Assembly (NCBI GenBank): GCA_050331295.1
Contig: JBHJGZ010000004.1
Location: forward strand, 477,008 to 541,007
DNA: 64,000 bases
Direction of reading: 5' to 3'
From: Myxococcota bacterium
Lineage (GTDB): Bacteria; Myxococcota; Kuafuiibacteriia; Kuafuiibacteriales; Kuafuiibacteriaceae
Below, in pieces: positions 14,328 to 24,244 of the stretch. The position numbers were made by a program, and so were the translations under genes. Each line of letters opens with the position of its first letter. The first letter of the stretch is position 1. Under the pieces are notes generated by a model. That model did no database searches and was not told the origin of the DNA. It saw only the letters and a program-made list of their open reading frames with translations.

Positions 14328-14825
14328 ATGCCTGGAACGGTCATCGCCGGAGCGCTTTGGGTCATGGCTGCTTCCCCCAACGCGTGGGCAGCGGAGGGTG
14401 AGTGGATGCTCAACGCGTCGACGGAGGTCATCGGTCGATTCAGCCGAGACGGCGAAGGTTTGGAGCCCGGAGGTCGACTGACGGTCTCCGGAGCACGCGG
14501 CGTGGGAGCCTGGATCTGGTTGATGGGCACGGCGGGACTCGGCGCCGTCGCACCTGGACCAAGGGTCGATTACGACATCATGGTCGGGGTGTCGGGGGCC
14601 GTCGACGTGGTTCGTTGGGTACCCTCCATCGAGCTGCTCGCGGGCTTCGGAGGAACCGGGGACCAGTTGGGCTTCGCGTTTGCCGGGTCAATGGGCGTGG
14701 AACGGTTCGTCGCAAGGCGCTGGAGCCTAGGGGTTCGGCTGCAGGGCCGCGGGGTGATCCGGCCGGACGACCTGGATCCAGGTGCCTCGGTTCAGATTCG
14801 CATCTCGCGTCGCATCGGTTTCTGA
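14328..14825 (+). CDS. Small outer-membrane beta-barrel-like protein (hypothetical)
   Basis: Sub-ORF of track 13698..14825 starting at ATG with an AAGGA RBS. Signal peptide MPGTVIAGALWVMAASPNAWA. Alternating hydrophobic beta pattern and a terminal Phe (QIRISRRIGF), typical of OMP C-termini. Confidence 0.4.
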   Translation: MPGTVIAGALWVMAASPNAWAAEGEWMLNASTEVIGRFSRDGEGLEPGGRLTVSGARGVGAWIWLMGTAGLGAVAPGPRVDYDIMVGVSGAVDVVRWVPSIELLAGFGGTGDQLGFAFAGSMGVERFVARRWSLGVRLQGRGVIRPDDLDPGASVQIRISRRIGF

Positions 14826-14893
14826 CCCGGTCAGCGGCGCAGCCATCGGTCCGGCCCTTTCGTGATGGGGTCGACCTGAGGTATGCGCGCAAA

Positions 14894-16555
14894 GTGCAGG
14901 CATTCTCGGAGGTTGTCGACTTCCTGAACCACTACGTCTGGAGCTTTCCCGAAGCGCTCCCTTGGCTGGTCGTCGCGCTGCTGGGGACCGGGCTGTTCCT
15001 GACCGTGCGGCTCGGGCTGATCCAATTCCGCAAGACGGGCCATGCTTTGGCCATCGTCTCCGGCAAGTATGACGATCCCGAAGACTCCGGGGACATCAGC
15101 CATTTCCAAGCTCTCTCGACCGCGCTCTCGGCGACGGTGGGCGTCGGAAACATCGCCGGCGTCGCGACCGCCATCCACTATGGCGGCCCCGGTGCGGTGT
15201 TCTGGATGTGGGTCACCGCTCTGTTCGGTATGGCGGTCAAATACAGCGAGTGTACGCTGGCTCTGAAGTATCGAACGTTTGACCATGATGGTGCGGTGGC
15301 GGGCGGCCCGATGTACTACATCGAGCGAGGCCTCGGTTCTTCCTTCAAGCCTTTGGCGGTGCTCTTCGCGGTCTGCGGCGCGCTGGCCGCGCTCGGCACC
15401 GGCAACATGAATCAAGCCAACACGGTGGCAGTAAGCGCCGGGACCGACTTCGGGCTGTCTCCCCTGCTGGTTGGGTTCGTTTGTAGCGCAGTGGTCGGAG
15501 GTGTGATCTTGGGCGGTATTCGCCGGATTGCGGCGGTGAGTTCTCGGCTCGCCCCCAGCATGGCGGCTGTCTACGTGGCAGGTGCCTTGATCATCCTGGC
15601 CTTGCACGCTCCGCAGGTTCCCGGCGCCTTTCTCACCATCCTCGAGCACGCGTTCAATCCACGCGCGAGTGTGGGAGGGTCGGTGTTGGGCGCCTTCAGC
15701 GTCACCATGCTCTGGGGCGTGAAACGCGGCCTCTTCTCGAACGAGGCCGGCCAAGGAAGCGCGCCCATCGCCCATGCGGCGGCCCGGACCGACGAACCGG
15801 TCCGAGAAGGCGCCGTCGCCATGTTGGAACCGCTCATCGACACGCTGATCATCTGCTCGATGACGGCGCTGGTCATCATCGTGACCGGGGTCTGGGACCA
15901 GCACAATGAAAGCTCCATCGCCTTGAACAAGGCAGCGGTGGTTCGAGCAGAGGACATTCCTACCGAGGGCCGAATCTACGACCGCGTACAGGAGGCCTTG
16001 GCGGCCGAAGGGCCGTTTGAATTCGAGGTTGAGGACGGCGTGCCCAACGGGGTTGGATTCATCGCCTACGACGGTTTCGTGGGGGATCCTCGAATCGTTT
16101 ACAACGGGGATGTCTATAGCGGTCGAATTCAGGCTCCGCTGTCCACCAACACGGACATCAGTCTCCTGCGCCTGGAAGGGAAGATGTTGCTCAACAGTTC
16201 GGCCCTCACTGCGGAGGCCTTCCGCGTCGGCCTTTCTCGTATTGGAAACTGGGGGAACTATATCGTCACTCTGTGTGTATTCATGTTCGCTATATCGACG
16301 ATGATTTCTTGGTCCTATTACGGAGACCGATGTATCAATTATTTAGCGGGCTATCGCTTTGTCTTGGCGTACCGAATCGTGTTCACACTCTTCGTCTTCC
16401 TCGGAGCGGTACTCGCGCTCGAAACGGTCTGGTCGTACGGTGATCTCATGCTGGGCATCATGGTGGTCCCGAATCTCTTGGGAGTGCTCCTTCTGTCTCC
16501 GGACCTCGTACGCACCACCCGCAAGTACTTCGATGAACTGAGGTCTTCTTCGTGA
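14894..16555 (+). CDS. Sodium:alanine (amino-acid carrier) symporter, AGCS family
   Basis: The N-terminal region LFLTVRLGLIQFRKTGHAL...SHFQALSTALSATVGVGNIAGVATAI is AGCS-like, as is the C-terminal core. Start GTG at 14894 is an estimate; track ORF start 14402 is a spurious extension. Confidence 0.8.
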   Translation: MQAFSEVVDFLNHYVWSFPEALPWLVVALLGTGLFLTVRLGLIQFRKTGHALAIVSGKYDDPEDSGDISHFQALSTALSATVGVGNIAGVATAIHYGGPGAVFWMWVTALFGMAVKYSECTLALKYRTFDHDGAVAGGPMYYIERGLGSSFKPLAVLFAVCGALAALGTGNMNQANTVAVSAGTDFGLSPLLVGFVCSAVVGGVILGGIRRIAAVSSRLAPSMAAVYVAGALIILALHAPQVPGAFLTILEHAFNPRASVGGSVLGAFSVTMLWGVKRGLFSNEAGQGSAPIAHAAARTDEPVREGAVAMLEPLIDTLIICSMTALVIIVTGVWDQHNESSIALNKAAVVRAEDIPTEGRIYDRVQEALAAEGPFEFEVEDGVPNGVGFIAYDGFVGDPRIVYNGDVYSGRIQAPLSTNTDISLLRLEGKMLLNSSALTAEAFRVGLSRIGNWGNYIVTLCVFMFAISTMISWSYYGDRCINYLAGYRFVLAYRIVFTLFVFLGAVLALETVWSYGDLMLGIMVVPNLLGVLLLSPDLVRTTRKYFDELRSSS

Positions 16556-17980: not shown

Positions 17981-18766
17981 CTACGACGATTGGGGCTTGA
18001 GCCTCAGGACGACCACCGTGATGTTGTCGGAGCCTCCGGCGTCTCGAGCAGTGGTGACAAGACGGTCCACGATGGCCCGTGATGTCGTCCCTTCGGCAAG
18101 ACCCCGCAAGATGACGTCTTCGGGGACTTCCTTCGTCAGACCGTCGCTGCACAACATGACCACATCTTCGTCGCGGATATCCAAACGAAACACGTCGGGT
18201 TTGGGCTCCCGGTCTGAGTGTGCCTGGAGCGCGTTGTAGAGGATGTGGTGCATCGGCGAATCCGGTCCGGTGTCTTGGTCCGACCGCAGCTCTCTCTTGA
18301 GTTGCTCGGCCAAGGTATGGTCCGTCGTGAGCTGTTCGAGGTTGCCGTCGCGTAGCAGGTACGCACGGCTATCGCCGACGTGGCCGACCACCAATCCCGG
18401 AGGGTCGACCTGAACCACCGTCAAAGTCGTCCCCATGGTGGGATGATCGGGACGCTGCTGCGCCTCGTCATCGAGGTCGCGCTGCGCATCCGAAATGATC
18501 TGCTGCAGGTCGTCTTTGTGTTCGAATCCTCGCAACACCGCCTGCATGACGACTCGGGAAGCGACGTCTCCCCCGCCATGTCCGCCCATGCCGTCGGCGA
18601 CGGCCATTACGAGGGGAGGAGACGCACGCGAGGGGTCCCCCAGCGTACTCCGGAAGCTCGCATCGAACACCACGACCTCCGGCTCCAGCCCGGCGATCAG
18701 ATACTGATCTTCATTCTTGGGACGTCTTCGACCGGGATCCGTTCTGCCTGCGACATCGATACTCAC
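17981..18766 (-). CDS. PP2C-family (PPM) Ser/Thr protein phosphatase
   Basis: DPGRRRPKNEDQY, MAVADGMGGHGGGDVAS, LCSDGLT and GGSDNITVVVL. Confidence 0.85.
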   Translation of the reverse strand: MSIDVAGRTDPGRRRPKNEDQYLIAGLEPEVVVFDASFRSTLGDPSRASPPLVMAVADGMGGHGGGDVASRVVMQAVLRGFEHKDDLQQIISDAQRDLDDEAQQRPDHPTMGTTLTVVQVDPPGLVVGHVGDSRAYLLRDGNLEQLTTDHTLAEQLKRELRSDQDTGPDSPMHHILYNALQAHSDREPKPDVFRLDIRDEDVVMLCSDGLTKEVPEDVILRGLAEGTTSRAIVDRLVTTARDAGGSDNITVVVLRLKPQSS

Positions 18767-19311
18767 GGTTCAAGTCTCATCGGTTCGGGGTCGGTGCCCT
18801 CAGGGTTGGATTCAGGCATCCAAGTGGCCTGGTTCCGCACCCGCTGCCAAGCATCCAAAGCCCACTTGACCGTGGGAAATGCAAGCTCCTCCCATGGTAG
18901 ACCGCCATACGGGAACAAAGACACCTCTTGGCTCTCGGGACCAGCCGAGACCACAGGATCTTCCAGGATCGCGCGGTAGATCAGCTGAACCTGACTGATC
19001 CTACGGACAGAGTAGACCGCGAGCAGGCCCTCTACCCGAAGTCGAGCCCGCGCCTCCTCCCAGGCCTCCCGAATCGCCCCCTCTTCCGGGCTCTCGCCCG
19101 ATTCCAGGAAACCGGCCGGGAGCGTCCAAAACCCGACCCGAGGGGGGATGGCGCGCCGACACAGGAGGACGCGGTCTCCGTCCACGGCCACTACGCCAGC
19201 CACGATCTTCGGATTGTCGTAGGCGATATAGTCACAATCCGGGCAGACCAAGCGCTCCCGATCGTCGCCGGGGGGGATACGCCGGACACGAGGTCCCCGC
19301 TCATCGCTCAT
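18763..19311 (-). CDS. NUDIX hydrolase with N-terminal zinc-ribbon
   Basis: CPDCDY...Nudix box GFWTLPAGFLESGESPEEGAIREAWEEA. Overlaps the PP2C start by 4 nt. Start at MSDERG; the track start is 19338. Confidence 0.75.
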   Translation of the reverse strand: MSDERGPRVRRIPPGDDRERLVCPDCDYIAYDNPKIVAGVVAVDGDRVLLCRRAIPPRVGFWTLPAGFLESGESPEEGAIREAWEEARARLRVEGLLAVYSVRRISQVQLIYRAILEDPVVSAGPESQEVSLFPYGGLPWEELAFPTVKWALDAWQRVRNQATWMPESNPEGTDPEPMRLEP

Positions 19312-19391
19312 GTCGACCAACCTGCCTGCGATGGGCACGGGACGTCATCCGATTGTTGCTGCGGGGGCTCAGATCGAGGGAGATCAAGAAC

Positions 19392-21344
19392 ATGGAGCTG
19401 CGAGAAGCGGCGGAGCGAGTCCTATTCGGCACCGATCTCGAGGACAAACTTTGGTTTCCGGACCGAGTTTCCGACCTTCGACCCGGACCTTCGAGGCCCG
19501 CGCCCCCGGGTCCGGGCCGACCTCCGGGGCTCGATGGTCGATCTTCCATCACGACCGCATCGGCCCATTCCAGATTCCCGCGCGGGGCGCTCGAGGAACC
19601 GCTGGTCAGAGGTCGAGCCCTGCACTTCTTTGCGAACCATGAGCTTTTGGCGCTCGAGACAATGGCTTTGATGCTGCTCCGCTTCCCCGATGCTCCGGCC
19701 GGTTTGAGACGAGGCTTAGCGCGGACACTGACCGAAGAGCAGTCTCACCTGCGTCTTTATCTCAATCGCATGAACCAGCTGGGCGTCGAGTTTGGCTCAC
19801 TCCCGGTCAACGACTTCTTTTGGCGTTGCTTCAACTCCGTCGACCGTATCGAGGGTTATCTCTCCGGAATGAGTCTGACCTTCGAGCAGGCCAATCTCGA
19901 CTACAGTGCACAGTACGCCGAAGCCTTCGAAGCGGTCTCGGACATCCCTTCGGCCGAAGTCATGCGGAAGGTATTGGCCGACGAGATTCGCCACGTCGCT
20001 TTCGGGCGTGTCTGGCTGGGGAGGTTACGGCCCGAAGCGGACCTCTGGCAGCAGTATCTCGCAACGCTCCCGCCACCACTGGTCCCGCGGCGCTGCCGGG
20101 CAGATCGGATGTGGCTTGCACCTCGCCGACGCGCCGGGCTGCCTGAATCGTTCATCTCGAGGGTTGCATGCTCCGCCGAGAGCCGGGGTCGGAATCCGGA
20201 ACGGTGGACGATGAACCTCGACCCGGACGTCGGAAGGACGTCCACCCGCTCCGCCACGACCTCCCTAGAGCGGGACTTGGCCCCTCTGCTTCAGCTGTTG
20301 ATGCCCGCCGACGACGTGATCGTAGGGGTGCAGGCACCGGATCCCGAGTTTCTCGACACCTGGCACCGAGCTGGGTTGCCCGTCCGCACCTGGTCTCGGC
20401 CTGTAGCCAATGGCGAGGACCGTGACCGAGCTACGCGAGGTTGGGCGGACTACGCCCTTCCATCGGCTCCCGACCATCCAGGCCGGGCGCTGGCGCGAAA
20501 GCGCACAGCAGCCCGCTGGGAGCGAAGCTGGATGAGAGAGCGCCGGGATCCGATGGTCGGGCCTCGCCCCGGGGCTTCTTTCGCAACTACGCTGCGAGAA
20601 CTGCTTCACTGCAGCCGAGCCATGCTGCCGAGTGGTCCTGTACGCTGGAAACGTGACGTGGGCGCGTCCGGTCGAGGACACCGTGTGGTCACGGAAATCT
20701 CGGCCGAAGACCGAAGCTGGGCGAAGCGGTCTCTGCGTTTGGGCGGTGTGGTCGTCGAGCCGCAGCTCGTGCCCGTGATGGAGCTCGGTCTGATTTGGAA
20801 TTCGAAGGGCCCGGTCCGCGTGCTCCAGAGCTTGACCGACCCACGAGGGCGATACGTAGGCCACGTCCTCGGGGCTCCTTGGCGGAGAGTAGCTCAGCAC
20901 TTTGGTCGGAGAACCCAACAGGTCCGGTCGCTGTTGCTCGACGCGGCGGGATTCGTCCGGTCTCGCCTCTCGAAGTCCGGCTTCGAGGGACCGGCCGGGG
21001 CAGACTGTATGATCCACCGCCGCGGAGGTCGGCTGGAGCTTCGTGTGATTCAAGAGATCAACCCGCGATTCACGATGGGCCATGTCGCGCAGGCGCTCGG
21101 GAGGCACCTCGCTCCCCAAGCCGAGGCGAGACACATCCTCCTCAGCAATCGAGCACTGCAAAAGCATCGAGGCCTTTGCCTTCGGGAACTGCACGAACGA
21201 CTCCCCTCCAACCTTGGTTGTCCGCCTTGGGACCGAGGGCGGCTTTGGACCACGGATCCCCGCCATGCCGAGCACGCTGGCCTGCTGATTGTGAATCCCC
21301 AAACTCCTCTGGAATCGGCTCTGGGGTCGCCGCACCTGCTCTAG
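19392..21344 (+). CDS. DUF455 ferritin-like domain fused to a C-terminal ATP-grasp-like domain
   Basis: The N-terminal ~250 aa is a ferritin-like four-helix bundle (HFFANHELLALETMALML...ADEIRHVAFG). The C-terminal ~400 aa ends ...GFEGPAGADCMIHRRGGRLELRVIQEINPRFTMGH, an ATP-grasp-type E-I/V-N-P-R motif. Single uninterrupted frame. Confidence 0.6.
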   Translation: MELREAAERVLFGTDLEDKLWFPDRVSDLRPGPSRPAPPGPGRPPGLDGRSSITTASAHSRFPRGALEEPLVRGRALHFFANHELLALETMALMLLRFPDAPAGLRRGLARTLTEEQSHLRLYLNRMNQLGVEFGSLPVNDFFWRCFNSVDRIEGYLSGMSLTFEQANLDYSAQYAEAFEAVSDIPSAEVMRKVLADEIRHVAFGRVWLGRLRPEADLWQQYLATLPPPLVPRRCRADRMWLAPRRRAGLPESFISRVACSAESRGRNPERWTMNLDPDVGRTSTRSATTSLERDLAPLLQLLMPADDVIVGVQAPDPEFLDTWHRAGLPVRTWSRPVANGEDRDRATRGWADYALPSAPDHPGRALARKRTAARWERSWMRERRDPMVGPRPGASFATTLRELLHCSRAMLPSGPVRWKRDVGASGRGHRVVTEISAEDRSWAKRSLRLGGVVVEPQLVPVMELGLIWNSKGPVRVLQSLTDPRGRYVGHVLGAPWRRVAQHFGRRTQQVRSLLLDAAGFVRSRLSKSGFEGPAGADCMIHRRGGRLELRVIQEINPRFTMGHVAQALGRHLAPQAEARHILLSNRALQKHRGLCLRELHERLPSNLGCPPWDRGRLWTTDPRHAEHAGLLIVNPQTPLESALGSPHLL

Positions 21345-22456
21345 GGTTGTGGTGTCTCGAGTCGAGCGGTCCGTTGCCGAAGCCAGTGGTCCGCGAGAAC
21401 GATGGCCACCATCGCTTCGGCCATTGGCACGAAGCGGGGCAGAAGACAGGGGTCGTGGCGCCCTCGAACCTCGACCGAGGTCTCTGTGCCCGAACGAGTC
21501 ACGGTGCTCTGCGCCCGGGGGATGCTGCTGGTCGGCTTCACCGCCGCCCGCAGCTCGATGGCCTGCCCAGTGGAGATGCCGCCCAGCATGCCACCATGCC
21601 GATTGGTTTCGGTTTCGACGACGCCATCCGCGGTCGCGATGAAGCGGTCGTTGTGCTCGCTCCCCCTCATGGACGCCGCCTTGAAACCCGAACCGATCTC
21701 CACCCCCGTGACCGCGGGAAGCGAGAACAGGGACTTCGCGAGATCGGCTTTCAACTTGTCGAATACCGGTTCGCCCAAGCCTGGGGGCACGTTGCGAGCC
21801 ACGATCCCAGCCACGCCTCCGATCGAATCCTTCTCCCGGCGAATCGTCTCGATGAGCGCTTCCATCGCCGGCGCTGCTTCAGGGTCGGGGCATCGAATCG
21901 CGTTTGGCCGTCCATCGGAATGGTATTCCACCGATTCCAGGGTGACTTCGAGCCCGTCGACCTTCGCTCGGATGGAGCCGACCTGATCCACCCACCCGAC
22001 GACCTGGACGTCGATGGTCTCCAGCAACCGCTTCGCCACCACCCCGGCCGCCACCCGAGCCGCGGTCTCGCGGGCACTGGAGCGGCCACCGCCTCGGTGG
22101 TCTCGACGTCCAAACTTTGCATCGAACGTGAAGTCGGCATGCCCGGGCCGATAGACTTCCCGCAACGCTTCGTAATCCCGCCCCCGCGCATCCTCACTTC
22201 GAAGCAACAGCGCGATGGGGGTCCCGGTGGTCTTGCCTTCGAAGACACCGGACAAGATTTCGACCTCATCCCGCTCTTGGCGGGGACTGGTCAGTCGACT
22301 TTGGCCGGGCCGCCGGCGCGCCATGTCCAGTTGAAAGTCCTCGGGGCTCAAGGCAACGCCTGCAGGACATCCGTCGACGATCGCCACCAACCCGGGACCA
22401 TGGGATTCGCCAGCGGTGGTCACGCGGAAACAAGAGCCCCATGTGCTTCCCGCCAT
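21341..22456 (-). CDS. aroC: Chorismate synthase
   Basis: Motifs GESHGPGLVAIVDGCPAG, RRPGQSRL, GRDYEALREVYRPGHADFT and GRSSARETA. Confidence 0.95.
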   Translation of the reverse strand: MAGSTWGSCFRVTTAGESHGPGLVAIVDGCPAGVALSPEDFQLDMARRRPGQSRLTSPRQERDEVEILSGVFEGKTTGTPIALLLRSEDARGRDYEALREVYRPGHADFTFDAKFGRRDHRGGGRSSARETAARVAAGVVAKRLLETIDVQVVGWVDQVGSIRAKVDGLEVTLESVEYHSDGRPNAIRCPDPEAAPAMEALIETIRREKDSIGGVAGIVARNVPPGLGEPVFDKLKADLAKSLFSLPAVTGVEIGSGFKAASMRGSEHNDRFIATADGVVETETNRHGGMLGGISTGQAIELRAAVKPTSSIPRAQSTVTRSGTETSVEVRGRHDPCLLPRFVPMAEAMVAIVLADHWLRQRTARLETPQP

Positions 22457-22579: not shown

Positions 22580-24244
22580 ATGCTCGGAACCATCCTCGGA
22601 GCTTGCATCGTCGCCGGTACGCCCTTGCTCCTCGCGCAGGCTCGGCCGTCTACGGACACAACGGCCCGCCCTTCGGTCATCGAGATCGACAACATCGAGA
22701 TCCGAGGCAACGTAGCCCTGCCGAAAGGCGTGTATCGTGGCGTGCTACGTCGGCGCGCAGAGGAGTCGTCATTACCCCCGGAGCAGGTTCAGGCCATCCT
22801 GACGGAGTTTCTTCATCGAAGCGGTTACGATCTGGCTTCGGTCGAAATCGCCGACAACGTCGTGACCGTTGATGAGGGCCGACTCGACAGTGTGGTGTTC
22901 GTCGGCGCCAGCACAGGGGCGGTCCTCGGTTTCAAGCTCAGCTTCAACCTTCCAGGCCAGATCTTCAATCGATCCCTCATCGAGCAAGAGCTCGACCGCA
23001 TCGTTCGTGAAGGCGAGCTTGCCTCGGCAACCTGGGAACTGGTTCCTGCACCCCAAGCGAAGGGAAGTTTTCTTCAGCTCGAAGGAACCCGACGGATAGG
23101 CACGGTCACGGTCTTTTCTCCTGGGACCGAGTACTCACTGCGGATTTACGTCAAGCAGAGAGAATACGCCCCTGGCTTCGACCTGAACTTCGGTTTTCGA
23201 CCGCCGGACGGCATCTTCGTGAATACGGAATGGCGTTTCGTGAACGCCTTCTTGCCCCGGGATAGGATCACGTTTCTGAGCAGTCTCGGCGTAGACATTC
23301 TCGACCTTGCCGACGAACCGTCTGACCGGCTGGGAATCACCCGAGCAATCGCCGACGTCAAGTGGTTCACGCCGCCCTTGGGGGTGCCATGGCTTCGCTT
23401 CTTTCTCAATGCGAGCGCGCGAGGCCAAGGCCGGAACCGTACCGAAGATATCGGTGTTCGGAGCTATATCTTCTTCCCGCTGGTTGGTTCGGCAAACATT
23501 CAATTCGACTTTGGAGATATCGAGACGTTCTTCGGTGGCGGCGTCGAGCAACGCTTTACGTTCCGGGTAGTCTTGGCGGATGAGTTCGATGAGGACGCTG
23601 CTCCCATCTCCGTGCCGGCCGATACTCTGGAACCGGATGCCAATCTCCGTCCGTTCTTTGCGTTCGGCGGAGAGTACAATCTCGCGCCGGGACGGGTTCG
23701 CAAGGATCGACGTCACTTGTTCCGCCTTGCCGGTCGCGTGCTGGGGTCAGGACCGGACGACGCCGATGGAATCATCGATGTTCAAGCCTTCTATAAGAAT
23801 ACGGTTCTGTTCGGATGGGACGAATTGCGCTATGGCGCGGCCGGCGCCTTCATCGGCGGAGATGTGCCATTCTTCAATGAAGTCGCCTTCGGCGATGGCT
23901 TCTTCAGGGCCGCCTTTCTGGATGAGCTCTATACGACGCGTGTCGTGACGGGAAAGATCGAGTATCGCTTCTCGATCAGCCGAGACGTATTCAAGCTGAG
24001 CATTTTCAACGACGTGGGTGTTTTCGAAGAGCTCGACCTCTTCGACGACCCCGAGTTCGCCGGCTTTCCTCTCCGTAGCCGCCTCGGGCCGAGATTTGTC
24101 GAGGCGCCAGGCGTAGGGTTGCACGCTTTGGTCTTGGACGTGTTCCAGGTCGACCTCTACACCGGAGCGGGTTTCGTCTTCGGGACCGGTGATGGAGTCG
24201 ACGCAGACGTCGACATATCGCTTTCGATCGCTCAAGTGTTTTAG
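22580..24244 (+). CDS. Omp85-family outer membrane protein (BamA/TamA/TpsB-like: POTRA + beta-barrel)
   Basis: Signal peptide, POTRA-like IEIDNIEIRGNVALPKGVYRGVL and a long amphipathic beta region ending ...DISLSIAQVF with a terminal aromatic. Which subfamily is unresolved. Confidence 0.65.
   Translation: MLGTILGACIVAGTPLLLAQARPSTDTTARPSVIEIDNIEIRGNVALPKGVYRGVLRRRAEESSLPPEQVQAILTEFLHRSGYDLASVEIADNVVTVDEGRLDSVVFVGASTGAVLGFKLSFNLPGQIFNRSLIEQELDRIVREGELASATWELVPAPQAKGSFLQLEGTRRIGTVTVFSPGTEYSLRIYVKQREYAPGFDLNFGFRPPDGIFVNTEWRFVNAFLPRDRITFLSSLGVDILDLADEPSDRLGITRAIADVKWFTPPLGVPWLRFFLNASARGQGRNRTEDIGVRSYIFFPLVGSANIQFDFGDIETFFGGGVEQRFTFRVVLADEFDEDAAPISVPADTLEPDANLRPFFAFGGEYNLAPGRVRKDRRHLFRLAGRVLGSGPDDADGIIDVQAFYKNTVLFGWDELRYGAAGAFIGGDVPFFNEVAFGDGFFRAAFLDELYTTRVVTGKIEYRFSISRDVFKLSIFNDVGVFEELDLFDDPEFAGFPLRSRLGPRFVEAPGVGLHALVLDVFQVDLYTGAGFVFGTGDGVDADVDISLSIAQVF

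Follow-up and report, generated by a model that had tools for sequence, protein, structure and literature searches.

A DUF455 ferritin-like domain and an ATP-grasp module share one polypeptide in a Myxococcota genome and in related loci of about eight bacterial phyla

DUF455 (PF04305) is described as a family of standalone ferritin-like proteins of about 275 aa, for example in Sinorhizobium meliloti; the family is old and widespread and appears in eukaryote genome studies as well. Our literature search for a functional study of DUF455 found none. Catalytic ferritin-like di-iron oxygenases that can be compared with it include the cyanobacterial aldehyde-deformylating oxygenase (5UX2, 4KVS), MiaE-like 8FHC and the VlmB homologue 6D9F. 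Among ATP-grasp enzymes, the best described relatives for our purpose are amide ligases. PGM1 (PDB 3WVQ/3WVR), the pheganomycin peptide ligase, is encoded inside a biosynthetic gene cluster (PMC8939145). In LdmS (PDB 7R8P/7R8Q), an L-Asp--L-Met ligase, Lys173 and Glu215 bind ATP, Asp288 and Asp301 are Mg2+ ligands, and Arg305 is the catalytic arginine that positions the carboxylate (PMC9486568); its substrate-binding residues are described as Arg47 and a hydrophobic Met pocket. A third such enzyme is BesA (PDB 8YI6), an L-propargylglycine--L-glutamate ligase.

Here we describe a gene that joins the two kinds of domain in a single frame, an architecture for which we found no description in the literature. 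The gene lies in a Myxococcota contig, in a stretch of 64,000 nucleotides that we analysed as a whole (the window). Neither half of the encoded protein has a characterised close relative. Its C-terminal half is 15% identical to PGM1 and to the Streptomyces peptide ligase 8YND, but the PGM1-type enzymes are standalone, whereas our protein has an added N-terminal di-iron domain and lacks a cluster context; LdmS and BesA, at 12-15% identity, have no fused oxidase. The di-iron oxygenases named above show no significant sequence relationship to the N-terminal half (E 0.21 with a profile), and their substrates (fatty aldehydes, tRNA and hydrazine-type intermediates) have no demonstrated link to the fusion protein.

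The gene and its ferritin-like half

The fusion gene occupies 19392..21344 on the forward strand (650 codons plus stop). Its enclosing ORF runs from 19353 to 21344, with an ATG at 19392 that yields a protein of 650 aa, and the alignments of relatives begin at this Met1. A public gene call, P0001 (in the record of GCA_964605845.1), is shorter, a 560-aa protein starting at Met91 (19662); it leaves out the first ligand helix with its invariant HFFANHELLALE, and therefore its start looks mis-called. Homology supports 19392 over Met91 as the probable start. The gene was expected from an earlier note to sit between a NUDIX hydrolase and aroC, and Pfam calls on both flanking ORFs agree: the upstream, divergent neighbour (18763..19338, reverse strand) matches NUDIX plus Zn_ribbon_Nudix, and the downstream, convergent neighbour (21341..22456, reverse strand) is chorismate synthase (Chorismate_synt, E 1e-133), its ORF overlapping that of the fusion by 4 bases at their 3' ends. 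Further upstream in the window, beyond the NUDIX hydrolase, is a PP2C phosphatase gene. Translation also placed the three motifs quoted in the earlier note where it had put them: HFFANHELLALE spans aa 78-89, DEIRHVAFG aa 197-205 and LELRVIQEINPRFTMGH aa 548-564. An AF2 model of the full-length protein had a pLDDT of 90.6 and a pTM of 0.89.

Database searching yielded 2128 relatives at E <= 1e-3, and the best 120 of these are nearly all 620-775 aa long and cover 88-100% of the query; because relatives are so numerous and the best of them nearly all full-length, the ORF lies well outside what chance would produce. When one genome per species was scanned, at least 571 loci emerged; in the best 80, the match to the query starts within residues 1-7 and extends to residue 569 or beyond. 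Verrucomicrobiota make up the majority of the loci, with Myxococcota, Bdellovibrionota/Oligoflexia, Gemmatimonadota, Latescibacterota, Planctomycetota, Lentisphaerales and Leptonemataceae also represented. Cultured Thalassobacterium and Pelagicoccus strains are among the bearers of the fusion.

Pfam matches DUF455 at aa 49-255 (19536..20156, forward strand) with 130 bits (cut-off 34.3) and an E-value of 1.5e-37, spanning model positions 38-246 of 247, and the family is likewise matched in 42 of 42 aligned relatives. Ahead of this match is an N-terminal extension, aa 1-48 (19392..19535, forward strand), in which K19, P41 and R43 are invariant in the alignment; its first 40 residues are modelled at a pLDDT of 95-97. 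The half has the four-helix-bundle fold of ferritin-like di-iron carboxylate proteins, with core helices at aa 70-97, 103-129, 153-181 and 185-212 of the AF2 model. Helix 1 carries HFFANHELLALE (19623..19658, forward strand) with the proposed first metal ligand, E84; this residue, H83 and E89 are invariant (85/85), and H78 is found in 84/85. On helix 2, an ExxH motif (E116 and H119; 19737..19748, forward strand) is invariant in all 85 and kept in standalone DUF455. The helix-3 motif EQANLD (19884..19901, forward strand) supplies E165 as a ligand, which with Q166 and D170 is present in 85/85, while N168 is present in 84/85. Helix 4 has a second ExxH (E198 and H201; 19983..19994, forward strand; 85/85), aligned by profile with the DEYTH ExxH stretch of the aldehyde decarbonylase 4kvs. 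A check for the di-iron ligand set therefore found it complete on helices 1-4 (E84, E116xxH119, E165, E198xxH201, all 85/85), and with a Pfam score above threshold and the bundle fold this upholds the reading of the N-terminal half as a DUF455 ferritin-like bundle.

The fused domain and the S. meliloti protein score 130 and 321 bits, respectively, with 28% identity. Common to both are E84, E116, H119, E165, E198, H201, H78 and D170, whereas N82, H83 and E89 are peculiar to the fused branch. Judged by sequence, the fused domain is a divergent branch of DUF455.

The ATP-grasp half

The ligase module comprises aa 262-650 (20175..21341, forward strand), including a pre-ATP-grasp N-subdomain at aa ~262-360. 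Foldseek matched 272 PDB chains at E <= 0.001, and the best 50 of the 272 are all ATP-grasp enzymes; the three-subdomain fold of the superfamily is present. Alignment to LdmS (7r8p) identifies K420 (20649..20651; 85/85) as the ATP phosphate/adenine-binding lysine, equivalent to Lys173, E456 of E456-P457 (20757..20762; E456 85/85) as the adenine-binding hinge glutamate, equivalent to Glu215, and D538 (21003..21005; 85/85) as a Mg2+ ligand, equivalent to Asp288, all on the forward strand. The stretch E555-I-N557-P-R559 (21054..21068, forward strand; E555 in 84/85, N557 and R559 in 85/85) holds the second Mg2+ ligands and the catalytic arginine. The pairing of E555 and R559 with LdmS Asp301 and Arg305 rests on position and spacing, namely an acidic residue followed by an arginine four residues on, downstream of the aligned Asp, because the alignments stop short of that stretch. 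The ATP-binding lysine, hinge glutamate, Mg2+ ligands and catalytic arginine are thus all in place and conserved in 84-85 of 85. From the LdmS alignments, the residue roles and this conservation it follows that the ATP-grasp assignment is correct; the earlier note had made it from a motif, allowing that the fold might be lacking, and residues of the lysine, glutamate and asparagine kind that it named (K420, E456 and N557) are each present in 85/85.

Curated family models recognise this half poorly. No Pfam or NCBIfam model scored above threshold on it, and NCBIfam gave no match of any kind, so its membership of the ATP-grasp superfamily rests on fold and motifs. The sole Pfam family to touch it is DUF3182 (PF11379), with 15.6 bits against a gathering threshold of 26 (E 0.008, aa 402-460), a family matched in 8 of 42 relatives (best E 3.2e-9) and recognised as ATP-grasp by Burroughs et al. 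(PMC4431377). PreAtp-grasp (PF18604) matched 5 of 42 relatives (best E 1.6e-6), the window protein remaining unmatched. A single-sequence search against solved structures returned nothing significant and profiles gave marginal matches only; a profile of the C-terminal half matched LdmS (E 0.0036), PurD, PGM1 and BesA by sequence. The C-terminal half is unusually basic, with a median pI of 8.8 and a pI of 11.3 in the window protein.

Ranked by structure, the closest match is PGM1 (score 26.2, 331 residues aligned), followed by the Streptomyces peptide ligase 8ynd (24.2), BesA (23.6) and LdmS (22.5), and then, across a clear gap between these four amide ligases and the purine-pathway enzymes, by PurK (18.9) and by PurD and PurT (both 18.6). 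The ranking supports placing the modelled module structurally in the PGM1/BesA/LdmS group.

Genomic context and standalone ligases

The order NUDIX, fusion, aroC recurs only in one closely syntenic Myxococcota MAG, and three more distant homologues have unrelated neighbours. All-against-all clustering of the ORFs at 85 loci found no partner gene common across phyla: the largest neighbour cluster is a generic ABC transporter, present at 14 loci and at varied distances, while a TrpRS, a DEAD-box helicase and an enolase-superfamily gene are each confined to one lineage. With no neighbour cluster spanning phyla, we reject a conserved operon partner; the fusion needs no partner gene. Nor were there matches to PADLOC models when we looked for a role in anti-phage defence.

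Separate DUF455 and ATP-grasp genes lying side by side, which the earlier note had thought worth looking for, did not turn up in the sampled loci. No ATP-grasp gene was found near standalone DUF455 at two alphaproteobacterial loci (S. meliloti and Azospirillum), and eleven standalone ligase loci, three of them from Bacteroidales, contained no DUF455-like sequence in any frame. In-frame stop codons occur just upstream of all five standalone ligase genes that were looked up (P0241, P0256, P0259, P0263 and P0267). One protein that is homologous to the C-terminal half from end to end (hhalign E 1.2e-32) is a Parabacteroides 'hypothetical protein' of 402 aa; it has no Pfam domain, and it stands for more than 1,300 proteins of a Bacteroidales branch. 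At three Bacteroidales loci the gene for this homologue is preceded by a DUF349 gene. The standalone loci without DUF455 argue that the ligase module is an autonomous enzyme. A divergent DUF455 domain has been gained by one large branch of the ligase.

Searched for exhaustively with a profile of the C-terminal half alone, the family numbers 1,658 clusters (50% identity) at E <= 1e-30; relaxing the cut-off to E <= 1e-10 raises this to 5,018. The best 150 cluster representatives comprise 117 full-length fusions, 14 that are apparently N-terminally truncated and 19 short forms, about 390-560 aa long, whose match starts within the first 50 residues; some of the short forms have no start Met or start inside the DUF455 region, and so may be fragments.

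In four of the five standalone contexts examined, an enolase-superfamily gene adjoins the ligase gene on the opposite strand, and these four enolase-superfamily genes are 67-79% identical among themselves; at one of the four an amidohydrolase gene lies between the two. An orthologue adjoins the fused gene or lies within 2 kb of it (5 kb in locus L084) at six Gemmatimonadota and Latescibacterota loci. In the enolase-superfamily protein the KxK motif is retained, as are metal ligands one and two; H-F aligns opposite the D-E of 2qde and 2p88 and a Val opposite a Lys of 2p88, positions that we take to be those of the third metal ligand and of the beta-6 catalytic lysine, respectively. We considered whether this neighbour might be a dipeptide epimerase or N-acyl-amino-acid racemase, a reading left unsupported by NCBIfam scores that were all far below cut-offs and disfavoured further by both substitutions. 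Other standalone ligase copies lie 10 bp downstream of an amidohydrolase gene, or come first in what looks like an operon that also encodes an HDIG protein and a PA/M28/TFR_dimer peptidase.

Proposed chemistry and competing readings

Fold and motifs do not reveal the ligase substrate. The neighbours, which offer lineage-restricted hints, and the structural ranking together point to a small amino-acid-derived carboxylate or amide. The earlier note had suggested that a small molecule or peptide is modified in two steps, and with amino-acid and peptide ligases as the closest structures we infer something similar. We give an even chance to the reading that the fusion product is a self-contained bifunctional enzyme, acting as a ligase and as a di-iron oxidase on the same molecule, with a small substrate. 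The protein would be cytoplasmic. Its ATP-grasp half would act as a carboxylate-amine ligase that, with Mg-ATP, converts a carboxylate to an acyl-phosphate (K420, E456, D538, E555, N557 and R559) and then transfers the acyl moiety onto the amine of an amino-acid-like partner, so as to yield a dipeptide, an adduct of the gamma-glutamyl type or an N-acyl amino acid. The DUF455 half would hold a carboxylate-bridged di-metal centre, most likely di-iron, at E84, E116xxH119, E165 and E198xxH201, and would use O2 to oxidise the substrate or the product of the ligase, most likely by hydroxylation, desaturation or N-oxygenation. Both the order of the two steps and the action of both domains on one molecule are presumed here. 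Precedents by analogy are BesA and BtrJ, whose ligations are followed by oxidations by BesE and BtrO, respectively. The presence of the ligase module in many bacteria with no DUF455 nearby implies that the oxidative step is unneeded for the basic role of the ligase, and that step could serve a different purpose, such as regulation.

A first objection is that the substrate is a macromolecule (a tRNA, an rRNA, or a ribosomal or translation protein), of which the di-iron half would hydroxylate a residue or base while the ATP-grasp half adds an amino acid. Such an enzyme would be likened to MiaE for hydroxylation and, for the ligase, to RimK, which adds an amino acid onto ribosomal protein S6. The high pI of the C-terminal half keeps a macromolecular substrate in play, and would also fit one that is acidic. 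We consider this reading unlikely.

A second objection concerns the type of ATP-grasp enzyme, which might be a carboxylase or kinase (PurK, PurT or biotin carboxylase-like) whose carboxyphosphate or acyl-phosphate modifies the substrate of the di-iron domain. The E-x-N-x-R motif, here EINPR, is common to biotin carboxylase, CPS and PurK, and it counts for this reading, as do the highly significant Foldseek matches to PurK, PurT and biotin carboxylase. DUF3182, the only and weak Pfam match, has moreover been placed in the CPS/BtrJ clade (PMC4431377). We regard a carboxylase-type enzyme as quite improbable.

Third, the DUF455 domain might carry out no substrate chemistry at all, and be instead a regulatory domain that senses iron or oxygen, or holds iron, and switches the ligase. 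The surroundings of the metal site argue against this: many polar residues that are not ligands are invariant there (H78, N82, H83, Y123, T163, Q166, N168, D170, R234 and R245), a pattern typical of a substrate pocket. The domain also exceeds Dps-type bundles in length, and among catalytic enzymes the alignments that are longest and highest in identity are with oxygenases, MiaE-like 8fhc (162 residues, 20% identity) and the VlmB homologue 6d9f (186 residues). A purely regulatory role therefore seems very unlikely to us.

Finally, the source is a metagenome-assembled genome and chance long ORFs are common at 62-65% GC, so that the single ORF might be an artefact of a frameshift, of chimeric assembly or of read-through across two genes. 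We consider the chance of this negligible: both halves share one uninterrupted frame at every one of 84 related loci, which were assembled independently and span about eight phyla; the 117 full-length fusions are found among the best cluster representatives; and the junction between the halves is itself conserved (SKGRxP...FNPxxE). The single-polypeptide fusion claimed in the earlier note, which a frameshift dividing the ORF into two genes would have undone, therefore stands.

The protein is assigned to DUF455 by Pfam; its fold and catalytic motifs place it in the ATP-grasp superfamily, but it belongs to no curated ATP-grasp family. Its C-terminal 390 residues represent an ATP-grasp family of large size, with about 1,650 clusters at E <= 1e-30, for which neither Pfam nor NCBIfam has a model; these resources do not recognise the ligase, so its members carry no annotation beyond 'DUF455 family protein' or 'hypothetical protein'. 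Relatives have the fused di-iron domain, the divergently paired atypical enolase-superfamily enzyme, or both, and these two may be alternative or successive means of processing the same ligase product. It is a tentative and rather doubtful proposal that the fusion represents an undescribed widespread pathway, in which one polypeptide builds an amino-acid-derived amide and then oxidises it with O2 to give a new metabolite or modification; the groups concerned would be Verrucomicrobiota, Myxococcota, Bdellovibrionota, Gemmatimonadota, Latescibacterota and Planctomycetota. If it is true, the substrate of the ligase would also give DUF455 its first assigned chemistry. The fusion of DUF455 to a ligase whose nearest structures join amino acids or peptides narrows the search for that substrate to amino-acid-derived carboxylates and amides. 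As a single-protein system that can be directly expressed and screened, the fusion offers a first experimental lead to DUF455.

Start and charge of the fusion protein

The public call for the DUF455/ATP-grasp fusion protein, P0001 (L001:10001-11683), is 560 aa long and starts at Met91 (window 19662), dropping 90 conserved residues that include the invariant HFFANHELLALE ligand helix. Comparison with homologues supports the ATG at window 19392 as the start, in preference to the public Met91 call. The two halves differ in charge across the window protein (window 19392-21341) and its 84 relatives: most members have a basic ATP-grasp half (median pI 8.8, and 11.3 in the window protein), against a median pI of 6.1, or mild acidity, for the DUF455 half. 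Small-molecule ATP-grasp ligases are not generally known to be this basic.

Standalone ATP-grasp homologues and their neighbours

The ATP-grasp half has an end-to-end standalone homologue (hhalign E 1.2e-32) in a Bacteroidales family of 402-aa "hypothetical proteins", which numbers more than 1,300 proteins and carries no Pfam domain. We located one copy in Parabacteroides distasonis (NZ_OY725768.1, L088:5548-6756) and others in L089 and L090; a DUF349 gene lies directly upstream in all three of these loci. Another standalone protein, P0256, shares 65% identity with a Latescibacterota fusion protein, and its gene comes first in an apparent operon (L094:281-4512 and L095:181-4412), followed by genes for an HDIG-domain protein and a 755-aa peptidase with PA, Peptidase_M28 and TFR_dimer domains, a combination that resembles glutamate carboxypeptidase II. 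At a further locus (L096:3491-6317) an Amidohydro_3/Amidohydro_1 gene is followed after 10 bp, on the same strand, by a standalone ATP-grasp gene; an enolase-superfamily gene lies divergently upstream of this pair.

Such an enolase-superfamily gene (MR_MLE_C) is found divergent to the ATP-grasp gene, adjoining it or a few kb off, whether the latter is standalone or fused to DUF455. Examples are L091:429-1712, L092:3610-4896, L096:2025-3329 and L097:3597-4937, with further cases in L058, L072, L074, L078, L084 and L085. Its product is well conserved across loci (67-79% identity) and retains the KxK motif; in alignment it places H-F opposite the D-E of structures 2qde and 2p88, presumably where the third metal ligand sits, and Val opposite the Lys of 2p88, presumably the beta-6 lysine.

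Other genes of the window

The sodium:alanine symporter at window 14402-16555 is listed as a 717-aa ORF with a long Arg/Gly-rich N-terminal extension, which is probably an open-frame artefact of GC-rich sequence because the public call (L001:5233-6894) is only 553 aa. Window 22580-24244 encodes a 554-aa protein for which Pfam gives a weak POTRA match (E 0.077) and nothing significant. The syntenic Myxococcota MAG has in the equivalent position a 516-aa gene, likewise without any Pfam match, so the two are probably orthologues; the 554-aa protein may be an uncharacterised outer-membrane protein.

Gene order around the fusion in relatives

In that MAG (GCA_039024635.1), which is the nearest relative with synteny, a histidine-phosphatase-family gene (His_Phos_1, L002:7273-8004) separates the NUDIX gene from the fusion gene and shares 4 bases with the latter's start. 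No His_Phos_1 gene stands between these two genes in the window, where they lie 53 bp apart. At six loci of the Oligoflexus/Bdellovibrionota lineage (L008, L011, L012, L018, L019 and L024; e.g. L011:6834-7982) the fusion gene lies directly 3' of, and in the same orientation as, a gene for a class I aminoacyl-tRNA synthetase of the Trp/Tyr type (Pfam tRNA-synt_1b), which is probably trpS; there is almost no space between the two, and the pair looks like a lineage-specific operon.
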